Shown here one piece after another: positions 20,335 to 34,885 of a stretch of 64,000 nucleotides of DNA (positions are counted from its first letter, which is position 1; each line of letters begins with the position of its first letter). The stretch covers positions 3,804-67,803 of the forward strand of contig CAIYAG010000045.1 of NCBI GenBank assembly GCA_903924075.1, written 5' to 3'. Position numbers and translations under genes: made by a program. The notes below the pieces were generated by a model. The model was not told the origin of the DNA, searched no databases, and saw nothing but the letters and a program-made list of their open reading frames with translations. This DNA is from an uncultured Bacteroidota bacterium. Lineage in GTDB: Bacteria; Bacteroidota; Bacteroidia; Chitinophagales; Chitinophagaceae.

Positions 20335-21279
20335 TTATTCCATCACTTTTTTCCAAAGTTCCGGTATGCGTTTGATCCATACCAACTCTCTTCTTTTGAG
20401 GGAGGCATCTTCAGCTGGATAGCCGAAATAGGTTTTTCCACCAGCTAATGAAGAAGGAACCCCGCTCTGTGCTAAAACCACTGCATTGGCTCCAATGGTG
20501 AGTGTTTTGCTTACGCCAACCTGCCCCCAGAGTGTAACCCCATCTTCAATAATGGTTCCTCCAGCGATTCCAACCTGTGCTGCAAACAAGCAATTTTTTC
20601 CTACTGTAGTATCGTGTCCGATATGCACCATATTATCCATCTTGGTTCCAAAACCAATTCTGGTTTCTGCTGTTACTCCACGATCGATGGTACATCCTGC
20701 ACCAATTTCTACATTGTCTTCGATCACTACATTGCCACAACTTTGCATGCGTTTAAACCAACTATCGCGATTCTTTTTTGTGTTATAATAAAATGCATCG
20801 CTACCTACTACAGTGCCTGCTTGAATTACTACATTGTCACCAATAATTGTCCCATCTAATAAACTAACATTCGGATAGATCACAGAATTTTTTCCGATCA
20901 CAACATCTTTACCAACAAAAACATTGGGCATGATAATGCTTCCTTCACCAATCATTAAATTATCACTGATCGATTTTTCTGCAGCAACAAATGGTTTGAA
21001 ATGGTTTACGATTTTCAAATAAGATTCAAATGGTTCTGCCACAACGAAAATTGTTTTTCCTTCTGGAACAACTACATCTTTCGTATTTATAATGATGAAA
21101 CTTGCTTCACTGTTCAAACAAGTATCGTAGTACTTTGGATGATCAACAAAAACAAGATCGCCCTTCATAACTTTGTGTATTTCGTTAATACCACTTATTT
21201 GCGCACTGCGATTACCCGATATTTCAGCACCAATCAAATCAGCCATCCATTCTACAGAAACAGGAGCAGGAAACTTCAT
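20335..21279 (-). CDS. lpxD: UDP-3-O-acylglucosamine N-acyltransferase, LpxD-like paralog
   Basis: Hexapeptide repeats, TIDRG, KMDNMVHIGH; likely ATG at 21279 (MKFPAP). Confidence 0.85.
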   Translation of the reverse strand: MKFPAPVSVEWMADLIGAEISGNRSAQISGINEIHKVMKGDLVFVDHPKYYDTCLNSEASFIIINTKDVVVPEGKTIFVVAEPFESYLKIVNHFKPFVAAEKSISDNLMIGEGSIIMPNVFVGKDVVIGKNSVIYPNVSLLDGTIIGDNVVIQAGTVVGSDAFYYNTKKNRDSWFKRMQSCGNVVIEDNVEIGAGCTIDRGVTAETRIGFGTKMDNMVHIGHDTTVGKNCLFAAQVGIAGGTIIEDGVTLWGQVGVSKTLTIGANAVVLAQSGVPSSLAGGKTYFGYPAEDASLKRRELVWIKRIPELWKKVME

Positions 21280-21587
21280 AACTGTGTTTTTTGTGAAAAT
21301 CAAAGGTAATGGCTAGTGCAAAGCAGAAATTTTTTTTCGTTAAAAATGACCGTTTCAAGCAAAGATTTTAAGGTTTCCTTGATGATTCAAATCTTGTTCA
21401 ATTCTTACCACTCGTTTTTTGCAAACTGCTGAAACCCTTTATTCATCATTGTTTCAGCGGTTTGTGTTTTTTATACTGCTGTTTTTACTTTATTAAACTG
21501 CTAATTTTAATGCGCATAAAAGCGTCTGAAAAGGGGCTGGAATTCACAACCTGCTTGAAAATGTTAATAAAATTGTTTAAAAAAATT

Positions 21588-21618
21588 TTTGCATTAGATA
21601 AAAGGTTTTTTAATATTG
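21588..21618 (+). promoter_or_regulatory. Candidate promoter: -33 TTTG (21588-91), 19-nt spacer, -7 TAATATTG (21611-18)
   Basis: Bacteroidota consensus with one mismatch and correct spacing. Confidence 0.5.
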
Positions 21619-21622
21619 TGTA

Positions 21623-21696
21623 AGGAAATTCAATTTCCTGGTACTTACTAACCCATCCATATACAAAGTCTCGCTTCTGCGGGACTTTTGTTTTTT
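21623..21696 (+). ncRNA. Candidate ~75-nt small RNA or attenuated leader
   Basis: 5' hairpin AGGAAAT-TCA-ATTTCCT, single-stranded middle, 3' terminator hairpin with U-tract; promoter just upstream. Confidence 0.4.
21665..21696 (+). terminator. Intrinsic terminator abutting the pseudouridine synthase ATG
   Basis: AAAGTCTCGC-TTCT-GCGGGACTTT then TGTTTTTT. Confidence 0.7.
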
Positions 21697-22287
21697 ATGA
21701 ATTACTACTTCCAACTATACAAACCTTATCAAGTACTTTCTCAATTTTCACCCGAAGAAGGCAAGCAAACTTTAGCCGATTTTTTTGATGTACCCAAAGA
21801 CGTTTATCCTGTTGGAAGATTAGATTATGATAGTGAAGGTTTGCTTTTACTCACGAACGATAAACAATTAAATCATCGATTACTGCATCCTACATTTTTA
21901 CACCAAAGAAGTTATTGGGTGCAAGTTGATGGAGCAATCAATGAAAATGCGATCAATGATTTATCAAATGGTGTTGACATCAACCTTGATGGAAAAATCT
22001 ATCGCACCAAAAAGGCAATTGCAAAAATTTTTGAAACTGATCCCATCGTTCCAGAAAGAAATCCACCCATCAGATTTAGAAAAGAAATTCCTGCACCTTG
22101 GATCGAACTCATCTTAACCGAAGGAAAAAATAGACAGGTCAGAAAGATGACTGCAAAAGTTGGATTCCCCACTTTGCGTTTAATTAGAAATAGTATCGAA
22201 GACATTCGTTTAAATAATATGCAACCCGGTGAAATGATTGCATTAACCGAACAGGAGATTTACCAAAAACTCTTTCATAGAAAATAG
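21697..22287 (+). CDS. rluE: rRNA pseudouridine synthase, RsuA/RluE family
   Basis: YKPYQVLSQF, VGRLDYDSEGLLLLTND, LTEGKNRQVRKM; no S4 domain; likely ATG at 21697. Confidence 0.8.
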   Translation: MNYYFQLYKPYQVLSQFSPEEGKQTLADFFDVPKDVYPVGRLDYDSEGLLLLTNDKQLNHRLLHPTFLHQRSYWVQVDGAINENAINDLSNGVDINLDGKIYRTKKAIAKIFETDPIVPERNPPIRFRKEIPAPWIELILTEGKNRQVRKMTAKVGFPTLRLIRNSIEDIRLNNMQPGEMIALTEQEIYQKLFHRK

Positions 22288-22338
22288 GTTGCATACTGCT
22301 TTATTTAGCCAACCCTTGTCAACCTGCCCAACATGCGT

Positions 22339-22346
22339 TAATTTTG
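22339..22346 (+). promoter_or_regulatory. -7 box TAATTTTG of lysS
   Basis: Exact consensus; TTG 20 nt upstream. Confidence 0.55.
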
Positions 22347-22368
22347 CCCGCTCTAAGCAATTAATATT

Positions 22369-23916
22369 ATGAGTTTATCCCACTTGTCTGAACAAGAAAT
22401 CATTCGTCGTGAAAAAATGGCGAAAATGCAAGAAGCTGGAATTGATCCGTTTCCTGCACCCTTGTACCCGGTTTCGCACTTTTCTACCGATATCAAAGAA
22501 AATTATACCGAAGAGACCAAAGAACAGTATGCCCATGTTTGTGTGGCTGGCCGTATCATGAGTATCAACGATAAGGGTAAGGTATTGTTCATTAAGATCC
22601 AGGATAGCAAGGGCATTATTCAACTCTATGTAAAGAGAGATGATATTTGCCCAGATGAAGACAAGACTTTTTGGGATGTAGTAATTAAAGGTGGTCTCGA
22701 TTTGGGAGATATCATCGGCGTTACCGGCTATGGCTTTATCACCAAAACCGGCGAAACCTCGATCCATACCCAAACCTTAACCCTACTTACCAAATCACTG
22801 AAACCACTTCCTGTGGTAAAACGCGATGAGGAAGGAAATGTGTTTGATGCTGTAACCGACCCCGAGTTTCGTTATCGCCAGCGTTATGCCGACCTGATCA
22901 TCAATCCGGATGTAAAAGAGACTTTCGTGAAGAGAACCAAGCTGGTGAACACCATCCGCGAGTTCTTGAATGCGCAAGGTGCTTTGGAAGTTGATACACC
23001 AGTGTTGCAAAGCATTCCTGGTGGCGCTGCTGCCCGTCCGTTTATTTCGCACCACAATGCCCTCGATATACCATTGTACCTCCGTATTGCCAACGAATTA
23101 TACTTAAAGCGTTTGATTGTAGGAGGATTTGACTGGGTATACGAGTTCAGCAGAAACTTCCGGAACGAAGGAATGGATCGCACACACAACCCAGAATTCA
23201 CCGTTTTGGAGTGGTACACTGCCTACAAAGATTATTTCTGGATGATGGAAACTACCGAGCAATTATTCGAAAAAATTGCTTTGAGTTTACACGGAACAAC
23301 AGATGTGGTATTGGGCGATAAGATCATCAATTTTAAAGCACCATACAGACGTATCAGCATATTAGATGCCATCAAAGAAAATACAGGTATCGACGTAAGT
23401 GGTATGGATGAAGCTGGTTTGAGAGATGTGTGTAAGCAATTGAATATCTCCGTTCCAAATAATATTGGTAAGGGTAAATTAATTGATGAATTGTTCGGCG
23501 AAACAAGTGAACACACTTATATACAGCCAACATTCATTATTGATTATCCTGTGGAGATGAGTCCGCTTACCAAAAAACACAGAAGTAAACCAGGCTTAGT
23601 GGAAAGATTTGAATTGATGGTGAATGGTAAAGAAATTGCCAACGCTTATTCTGAACTAAACGATCCAATTGATCAGCGCGAACGTTTCGAAGAACAAGCG
23701 AAACTGATGGAAAGAGGAGATGATGAAGCAATGTTTATAGATTATGATTTCTTAAGGGCTTTGGAATATGGTATGCCACCAACATCAGGTATCGGGATCG
23801 GAATTGATCGTTTGTGTATGATGATGACCAATCAGGTTTCCATTCAAGACGTTTTATTGTTCCCTCAAATGCGTCCTGAAAACAATGGCTCCGATGCACC
23901 ACAAGAAATAAAATAA
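22369..23916 (+). CDS. lysS: Lysine--tRNA ligase (class II)
   Basis: RYRQRY, GGAAARPF, FRNEGMDRTHNPEF, RFELM, EYGMPPTSGIGIGIDRL. Confidence 0.97.
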   Translation: MSLSHLSEQEIIRREKMAKMQEAGIDPFPAPLYPVSHFSTDIKENYTEETKEQYAHVCVAGRIMSINDKGKVLFIKIQDSKGIIQLYVKRDDICPDEDKTFWDVVIKGGLDLGDIIGVTGYGFITKTGETSIHTQTLTLLTKSLKPLPVVKRDEEGNVFDAVTDPEFRYRQRYADLIINPDVKETFVKRTKLVNTIREFLNAQGALEVDTPVLQSIPGGAAARPFISHHNALDIPLYLRIANELYLKRLIVGGFDWVYEFSRNFRNEGMDRTHNPEFTVLEWYTAYKDYFWMMETTEQLFEKIALSLHGTTDVVLGDKIINFKAPYRRISILDAIKENTGIDVSGMDEAGLRDVCKQLNISVPNNIGKGKLIDELFGETSEHTYIQPTFIIDYPVEMSPLTKKHRSKPGLVERFELMVNGKEIANAYSELNDPIDQRERFEEQAKLMERGDDEAMFIDYDFLRALEYGMPPTSGIGIGIDRLCMMMTNQVSIQDVLLFPQMRPENNGSDAPQEIK

Positions 23917-34860: not shown

Positions 34861-34885
34861 TAGACGAACTAACCCAAATTCTACT

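Follow-up and report, generated by a model that had tools for sequence, protein, structure and literature searches.

What is the promoter-hairpin-terminator unit that stands directly ahead of an rluE-like pseudouridine synthase gene in the DNA of an uncultured Chitinophagaceae bacterium: a small RNA gene in its own right, or a switch that belongs to the gene behind it? The unit lies within the 64,000-nucleotide (nt) stretch of contig CAIYAG010000045.1 that we analysed as a whole (the window), and a sequence-only reading of this stretch had proposed both possibilities. Our comparative analysis indicates that window positions 21623-21696 are a real, previously undescribed small RNA (sRNA) gene, whose predicted product of about 73 nt is called sRNA1 here. 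With its conserved promoter, covarying stems, invariant segment and single copy, the sRNA1 locus behaves as an autonomous small RNA gene. Furthermore, we consider it moderately probable that sRNA1 is a trans-encoded antisense RNA hub, pairing with modules adjacent to terminators and tied to DNA-repair and thiol-redox genes.

Conservation and structure of sRNA1

A BLAST comparison of positions 21280-21760 with relatives gives an identity peak at 21558-21695, where 32 of 37 same-genus genomes match at 75-91%, and the flanks are much less conserved. In the aligned copies the promoter boxes are kept, GTACTTACTAACCCATCYATATAC is invariant, and both the hairpin and the terminator stems carry paired substitutions. 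With the covariance model built for sRNA1 (R1), the window's own genome gives one copy at 92.7 bits, the next match scoring 22 bits, and the RNA is recognized in 169 of the 201 genomes of the family Chitinophagaceae, representing 130 of 151 genera and almost always with one copy per genome. Outside the family, R1 gives three weak matches in about 139 genomes from other families of the order and one weak match in about 331 genomes of other Bacteroidota; these outside matches, like those of the second model R2 described below, are weak and driven by the terminator. Carriers of the exact core, identified by an exact-pattern scan, include Sediminibacterium, Niabella, Ferruginibacter, Agriterribacter, Puia, Flavitalea, Hanamia and Segetibacter, among others. 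This conservation places the unit far above chance.

The sequence-only reading had named a homologue search and covariation among the checks to be made, and both homologues and covariation are present. A diverse alignment of 36 sequences fitted to the model displays compensatory changes in 13 of 15 pairs, namely 5 of the 6 modelled pairs of the 5' hairpin (93% of alignment cells paired) and 8 of the 9 pairs of the terminator (97% of cells paired). Overall, 95.6% of the cells are paired vs 81.7% in shuffles, none of the 500 shuffles reaching the observed value, and sliding the 3' partners leaves at most 69.5% of the cells paired. Fitting an alignment to a model favours structure, and the raw MAFFT alignment contains the same substitutions as the fitted one. 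The unpaired sequence UACUUACUAACCCAUCYAUAUA is invariant across the family. No known family accounts for the locus, as Rfam 15 returns no match at gathering thresholds across the whole window; the best sub-threshold hits for sRNA1, istR (22 bits, 45 needed) and Leu_leader (21 bits, 50 needed), are driven by the terminator.

Every element of the unit is found where the sequence-only reading had placed it (Table 1), and its statement that no open reading frame (ORF) lies inside also holds, the unit containing no ATG and, in the ORF list, no ORF of at least 40 amino acids. The two boxes of the predicted promoter are separated by a 19-nt spacer and differ by one mismatch from the Bacteroidota sigma-A consensus, TTTG at -33 and TAnnTTTG at -12 to -5 (PMC9723704). 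A generic sigma-70 scan does not detect this promoter because it seeks TTGACA/TATAAT, and the call is based on the Bacteroidota consensus together with conservation. The predicted start lies 5 nt after the -7 box; the ends given here for sRNA1, and for the sRNA2 described below, are predicted from sequence. Between the hairpin and the terminator, a 25-nt stretch (GGTACTTACTAACCCATCCATATAC) is unpaired, and within it positions 21642-21657 (UACUUACUAACCCAUC) form the core that is complementary to the partners. The terminator stem has 10 pairs, 5 of them G-C, with a loop of 4 nt, and is the sole terminator detected by the terminator scan in 20500-22800. An 80-nt stretch covering sRNA1 folds at -22.5 kcal/mol, with a z-score of -4.65 against shuffles.

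Complementary modules lie directly before terminators

The complement of the core, GATGGGTTAGTAAGTA, was searched in the 201 family genomes with up to two mismatches. Besides sRNA1 itself, one or two further complementary sites occur per genome, mostly AATGGGTTAGTAAGTA. The recurrent partner module reads (GAAUUU)AAUGGGUUAGUAAGUA and is followed directly by a G+C-rich hairpin and a T-run. This module, (R)AUGGGUUAGUAAGUA, is the complement of the sRNA1 stretch and stands 0-5 nt before terminator hairpins in four settings: a second predicted RNA gene (sRNA2) upstream of radA, and the 3' untranslated regions (3'UTRs) of recA, of a bacilliredoxin gene (brx; BrxA/B, TIGR04191, PF06491) and of a thioredoxin-like gene. 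Complementarity of the sRNA1 segment to the sRNA2, brx and recA modules extends over 12-27 nt, and the hetero-duplexes are predicted to be 16-21 kcal/mol more stable than the partners folded apart.

The recA and brx 3'UTRs were surveyed in 30 genera each. Just before the recA terminator, the module is found in 16 genera with at most three mismatches in 15, where about 0.04 in 30 is expected by chance. The search pattern finds the brx module in 12 genera, to which a degenerate copy in G087 is added. In three genomes (G062, G094 and G104), 23-27 of 32 nt of the brx 3'UTR are complementary to sRNA1, covering the 3' part of the segment and the ACAAAG of the ascending arm of the terminator; in G104, a 1-nt length change is matched in the brx module and in sRNA1. 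The thioredoxin-like setting occurs in one genus (G256), the gene being identified from its translated C-terminus. The window's own genome carries a brx site (contig C118:3821-3837, 16-17 nt perfect) and a recA site (contig C103:12908-12922, 12 nt perfect), both before a terminator.

Conserved complementary partners elsewhere in the genome are what a trans-acting base-pairing RNA predicts. In its sequence, sRNA1 combines features of a trans-encoded base-pairing RNA: a promoter and a terminator of its own, no coding potential, and a conserved seed with conserved sites. The proposal of the sequence-only reading that the unit is a trans-acting RNA with an exposed segment thus gains support from conservation across the family, covariation, the invariant segment and the conserved complementary partners.

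The same sites could be looked at as DNA, the 16-bp sequence being then a protein-binding or recombination site that acts in either orientation, with the promoter and terminator context incidental. A double-stranded 16-mer is indeed present in both orientations at three to five places per genome. However, the 16-mer is not palindromic, and every copy lies in a short transcribed non-coding stretch with a terminator hairpin 0-5 nt away. The RNA stems beside it covary, and there is no match to the Bacteroidetes LexA-like boxes CTAA-N5-TTAG and GGA-N5-TCC (PMC8565304). We consider a DNA-level site very improbable.

A vectorised scan of whole genomes for complementarity gave top matches mostly inside ORFs. 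Ribosomal or transfer RNA was discarded as a partner, complete genomes containing no multi-copy complementary matches, and so was a mini-ORF (AUG-GGU-UAG) in the module, its AUG being missing from many 3'UTR copies. The sequence-only reading had also drawn attention to a second occurrence of the 9-mer ACTAACCCA. This copy does exist at 34868-34876, before a terminator in the 3'UTR of an OmpA-like gene, but the recurrence is weak and unconserved: at least two copies appear in 7 of 100 shuffles, and the motif is kept in one of 18 other same-genus species (G015, locus L414), as the longer look-alike ACTAACCCAATCCTATAT. It was overweighted, and this look-alike of the seed in the sense orientation may be a sporadic 'sense' module or a product of chance. 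Another sense-type copy of the sRNA1 seed was encountered outside the Chitinophagaceae, in a genome from another family of the order (G311, locus L270, about 1501-1584), where the 3'UTR of an AhpC-like peroxiredoxin gene, identified from its translated C-terminus, contains AACTAACCCATCCTTATAAAAAG followed by a terminator; this copy may be a sign that the connection with redox genes is older.

A second predicted RNA gene upstream of radA

The most frequent carrier of the module, sRNA2, is a stand-alone predicted RNA gene of about 55 nt. It has its own conserved promoter (TTTG-N18-TAAYTTAG), with a GTTATTCACAG box at about -60, and its terminator covaries in 7 of 9 pairs. A covariance model built for it (R2) finds sRNA2 in 188 of the 201 family genomes and 141 of the 151 genera, with no convincing match outside the Chitinophagaceae, and the sRNA2 loci have no Rfam match. 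In 39 of the 42 loci listed for this check, sRNA2 immediately precedes radA in the same orientation; from the start of the module to the radA ATG, the distance has a median of 177 nt in the 29 loci measured and a minimum of 64 nt.

In most genera, sRNA1 and sRNA2 are perfectly complementary over 15-16 nt. Both RNAs are present in 165 genomes, sRNA1 only in 4, sRNA2 only in 23 and neither in 9 (Fisher p = 1e-5, uncorrected for phylogeny). Two RNAs that are predicted to be separately transcribed, with extended complementarity and joint occurrence, are what a sponge or decoy pair would show.

Several observations on sRNA2 are worth recording. In many genera, both RNAs are 4-60 kb apart on one contig in a conserved chromosomal neighbourhood, for instance at 304 and 332 kb on C1 of G195, at 115 and 140 kb on C1 of G132, and at 82.1 and 77.9 kb on C37 of G086. 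A variant found in G237, G259 and G139 (loci L347, L348 and L407) has the upstream sequence …TACATTTGTATCAAGTTGTGAATTTAATGGGTTAGTAAGT… in place of the usual promoter and keeps the seed and the terminator. Past the sRNA2 terminator, a conserved tail, CCCUUUUACUUU (e.g. L103, L117 and L120), can pair with AAGUAAA in the 3' part of the seed, and therefore part of the seed may be masked in the free RNA.

Coevolution and the points that weigh against pairing

Most genera are uninformative as to whether the two RNAs coevolve because both partners are invariant. The events that could be scored between sRNA1 and sRNA2 comprise two compensatory ones (C to A in sRNA1 with G to U in sRNA2 in genus g29, and U to C with A to G at a second pair in G120), two compatible with a wobble (changes giving G.U in G244 and G173) and about five to six that create mismatches. 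The latter weigh against pairing: in g58 and g85 both partners have changed at the same pair and leave an A.A mismatch, in g61 and G108 a change in sRNA1 gives an A.G mismatch, and in G078 two changes in sRNA2 give two mismatches. To this must be added that some brx modules present GUG opposite the CCC of sRNA1. The intermolecular covariation, as read from these alignments, is mixed.

Other points go in the same direction. The recA or brx 3'UTRs lack the module in about half of the surveyed genera. In the window's own genome, sRNA2 is not visible, its locus upstream of radA falling in an assembly gap: the flanks of the locus in a same-genus genome (L134) map to the end of contig C43 (886-1695) and the start of contig C152 (14-118), and the same-genus genome G190 carries sRNA2. 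The rluE start abuts the sRNA1 terminator in most genera, so that the unit may also act in cis. Furthermore, the sRNA1 transcript, its ends and its abundance are predictions, and the consequence of pairing is guesswork because pairing in a 3'UTR just before a terminator has no well-established outcome.

Mismatches of this kind also bear on the proposal that the invariant segment is a binding site for a protein (an RNA chaperone, an RNase or a regulator), the modules being competitors or unrelated. An invariance of 22-25 nt over about 130 genera exceeds that of most sRNA seeds, the 3' part CCAUAUAC is invariant though sRNA2 does not pair with it, and several lineages tolerate mismatches with sRNA2. 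On the other hand, a 15-16-bp duplex tolerates one mismatch, and the partners use differing sub-windows of the seed, which would explain why the whole 25 nt are frozen; the extended brx complementarity covers the 3' part. Binding of a protein does not predict perfectly complementary modules at three to five other loci per genome, all before terminators, and the genes linked to the locus include no candidate for such a protein. We hold this role to be improbable; like the DNA-level site, it is less likely than the trans-encoded antisense RNA hub.

Neighbouring genes and probable read-through

The neighbours of sRNA1 in the window are hemB, lpxD, rluE and lysS (Table 1), and the order lpxD <- sRNA1 -> rluE is conserved, with lpxD adjoining sRNA1 in all 59 loci checked. 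The best equivalog of the rluE-like gene is RluE, below its cut-off. In most genera its ATG lies about 0-12 nt past the T-run of sRNA1, which leaves no space for a promoter of its own and makes read-through plausible; rluE, whose start abuts the terminator, is probably transcribed in this way. In nine same-genus species (loci L009-L015, L018 and L019), rluE is absent from the locus, sRNA1 is kept and lysS follows about 20-35 nt past the terminator. In three other genera (L046, L053 and L060), sRNA1 is kept with neither rluE nor lysS within 1.5 kb. As sRNA1 is kept without rluE, the RNA is not an appendage of that gene.

This layout is the basis for a different explanation, in which the unit is a cis-acting leader, a conditional terminator of rluE or lysS, the short RNA is a by-product, and the module RNAs act in trans, their pairing extending as far as the ascending terminator arm and so favouring read-through. 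The unit has the position of an attenuator, on the same strand and directly ahead of rluE, with no room for a promoter before rluE or, in the nine species, before lysS. The brx complementarity in G062, G094 and G104 enters the 5' arm of the terminator, and sRNA2 is laid out similarly before radA. Nevertheless, the unit is not confined to the company of the gene it would regulate, rluE being absent in the nine same-genus species and the three other genera, the latter also without lysS. There is no leader ORF and no conserved intrinsic antiterminator: the sequence changes freely in the terminator stem but never in the unpaired segment, and a classical self-contained attenuator with a conserved alternative helix was therefore rejected. 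It is not obvious why a 23S pseudouridine synthase should be connected with recA, radA and brx, and the most frequent partner, sRNA2, pairs at a distance of 8 nt from the terminator stem. We regard such a cis-acting leader as unlikely. Regarding the switch limiting RluE to read-through that the sequence-only reading had offered as its alternative, the classical attenuator is thus unsupported, whereas read-through expression of rluE is a plausible second, non-exclusive role of the sRNA1 unit.

Table 1. Position of sRNA1, its parts and the neighbouring genes in the window
Feature	Position	Strand	Description
Operator-like inverted repeat	21541..21570	+	AATTCACA, 13 nt, TGTTAATAA; upstream of the sRNA1 promoter
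sRNA1 promoter	21588..21618	+	TTTG-N19-TAATATTG, read from the sequence; -33 box TTTG at 21588-21591, -7 box TAATATTG at 21611-21618; kept in all aligned copies
Predicted sRNA1, about 73-74 nt	21623..21696	+	start predicted at A21623; 3' end in the T-run 21691-21696
5' hairpin of sRNA1	21623..21639	+	AGGAAAT-TCA-ATTTCCT; 6-7 bp, loop of 3-5 nt
Invariant single-stranded segment of sRNA1	21640..21664	+	GGUACUUACUAACCCAUCCAUAUAC; no variation in 30 copies from the same genus and about 60 from other genera
Intrinsic terminator of sRNA1	21665..21696	+	stem 21665-21688, T-run to 21696; terminator scan
rluE-like pseudouridine synthase	21697..22287	+	ATG at 21697, directly after the T-run; PF00849, TIGR00093
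lpxD	20335..21279	-	divergent neighbour; Pfam LpxD and Hexapep domains
lysS	22369..23916		neighbour in the window

A candidate operator upstream of the promoter

Upstream of the sRNA1 promoter lies an inverted repeat (Table 1) with the family consensus (T)TATYCACA-N~9-14-TGTGMATAA(AA), kept in position and sequence in about 60 genomes of many genera. It looks like a candidate operator of a dimeric regulator. Its half-sites resemble DnaA boxes (TTATNCACA) and in some species are perfect look-alikes of them (TTATCCACA / TGTGGATAA). A DnaA-box site and a CRP/Rex-type TGTGA/TCACA site were both discarded, the half-sites being similar but the arrangement and spacing unfitting. Neither does the repeat match the Bacteroidetes LexA-like boxes CTAA-N5-TTAG or GGA-N5-TCC (PMC8565304). 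A TTATYCACA-type box is common to the promoters of both RNAs, as an inverted pair at sRNA1 and as a single box at about -60 in sRNA2 loci (e.g. L064, L117 and L124), which suggests a common regulator.

A further conserved element, at 21428-21458 on the + strand, is the stem-loop GCTGAAAC-(CCTTTATTCATCATT)-GTTTCAGC, which stands between this candidate operator and the promoter of lpxD. Within the genus, and likewise in other genera (L034 and L039), its stem is preserved along with the sequence of its 15-nt loop. The -7 box of lpxD, TACCTTTG, is the reverse complement of 21301-21308; the stem-loop lies upstream of the predicted lpxD start and is therefore outside the lpxD mRNA.

Proposed mechanism and significance

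As a trans-encoded antisense hub, sRNA1 would be made from a sigma-A-type promoter of its own, transcription ending at its intrinsic terminator. Its 25-nt single-stranded segment would then engage in antisense pairing with the module directly 5' of terminator hairpins, so that a single 'sense' hub would face 'antisense' modules in sRNA2 and in the 3'UTRs of recA, brx and occasionally a thioredoxin-like gene. Pairing may alter the 3' ends of the partners by duplex-dependent cleavage, by protection of the 3' end or by altered termination. In this scheme, sRNA2 could be a decoy or a co-regulated target, and titration could be exerted by sRNA2 or by fragments of the 3'UTRs. Part of the transcription would pass through the sRNA1 terminator and so express rluE, or lysS where rluE is lost, and partners that pair into the terminator arm might modulate this read-through. 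That sRNA1 and its partners are made and pair in vivo is what we infer from the genomic comparison.

The genes concerned (recA, radA, bacilliredoxin, thioredoxin-like) suggest a connection with DNA damage and with oxidative or thiol stress. A more ambitious formulation can be built on this, in which an RNA-based stress regulon has sRNA1 at its centre and sRNA1 sets termination, read-through or 3'-end decay of the recA, bacilliredoxin, thioredoxin and radA-leader RNAs in a family without canonical LexA, and in which pairing feeds back on the sRNA1 terminator and hence on rluE. We put it forward as a speculative extension that is rather unlikely in this complete form; if true, it would represent trans-acting 'terminator-adjacent' control, which is undescribed as a conserved regulon.

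Bacteroidota have so far yielded very few regulatory RNAs, and the Chitinophagaceae are an abundant family of soil and freshwater. The present analysis provides a testable RNA network consisting of a hub with an invariant seed of 22-25 nt, a partner before radA, and modules that recur at the 3' end of recA and of thiol-redox genes. If true, the antisense hub would couple DNA-repair and redox genes post-transcriptionally in a lineage without Hfq-type chaperones and canonical LexA, and would be a clear natural example of an sRNA that acts on 3'UTR sites near terminators. The R1 and R2 covariance models could moreover seed new RNA family entries.

Comparison with known systems

No paper on Chitinophagaceae small RNAs was found in the literature, and the supplements describing the Rfp sRNAs of Flavobacterium psychrophilum contain no sequence matching sRNA1 (PMC9723704). 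Among the non-coding RNAs of Bacteroidota, the guide RNAs of dCas12f-sigmaE systems are 85-105 nt long, carry a 3' guide, lie beside dcas12f/rpoE and have targets upstream of operons (PMC13472631). The likeness to sRNA1 resides in a stretch of 14-16 nt that matches several genomic loci. A role as such a guide was nevertheless rejected, sRNA1 being about 73 nt long with an internal match followed by a terminator, with hemB, lpxD, rluE and lysS as neighbours, and with matches located at the 3' ends of genes.

The Bacteroides RNAs GibS and MasB reportedly have a -33/-7 promoter, an unpaired seed and an intrinsic terminator, act independently of Hfq and target translation-initiation regions. While sRNA1 has the same kind of promoter, seed and terminator, they belong to another order and family, have no sequence relation to it and are much more narrowly conserved. 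To our knowledge, no Hfq or ProQ context is described in Bacteroidota.

In Bacillales, RoxS/RsaE is said to be a widely conserved sRNA with a C-containing unpaired seed and redox targets, titrated by a second RNA, the sponge RosA. The sRNA1-sRNA2 pair resembles it by the conserved C-containing unpaired seed, by the redox-related partners and by a second RNA with extended complementarity. It differs in that sRNA1 has no Rfam match, in its single long unpaired segment where RoxS/RsaE has several CCCC motifs, in the location of the partner sites in terminator-adjacent 3'UTRs rather than at ribosome-binding sites, and in its restriction to the Chitinophagaceae.

Pairing in a 3'UTR is known from GadY and gadX, and SroC and CpxQ are 3'UTR-derived sRNAs or sponges, all in Enterobacteria. 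The modules facing sRNA1 likewise pair at the 3'UTR of mRNAs, and the combination of seed and terminator resembles a 3'UTR-derived sRNA; however, GadY is cis-encoded opposite its target, while sRNA1 is trans-encoded and its module is repeated in unrelated 3'UTRs and in a stand-alone gene. Trans-acting RNAs derived from leaders are exemplified by rnTrpL in Sinorhizobium and by the riboswitch RNAs SreA and SreB in Listeria. They share with sRNA1 a short terminated transcript before a read-through-dependent gene, with targets in trans in addition, whereas sRNA1 has no leader peptide, ligand fold or conserved antiterminator and is kept without the downstream gene.

A base-pairing small RNA is therefore a known kind of regulator, and what is new here is the RNA family, its extreme conservation and the repetition of a terminator-adjacent module at repair and redox genes. 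By analogy, its closest functional counterparts would be sRNA-sponge pairs such as RoxS-RosA, 3'UTR pairing as in GadY, 3'UTR-derived sRNAs and leader-derived trans-acting RNAs.

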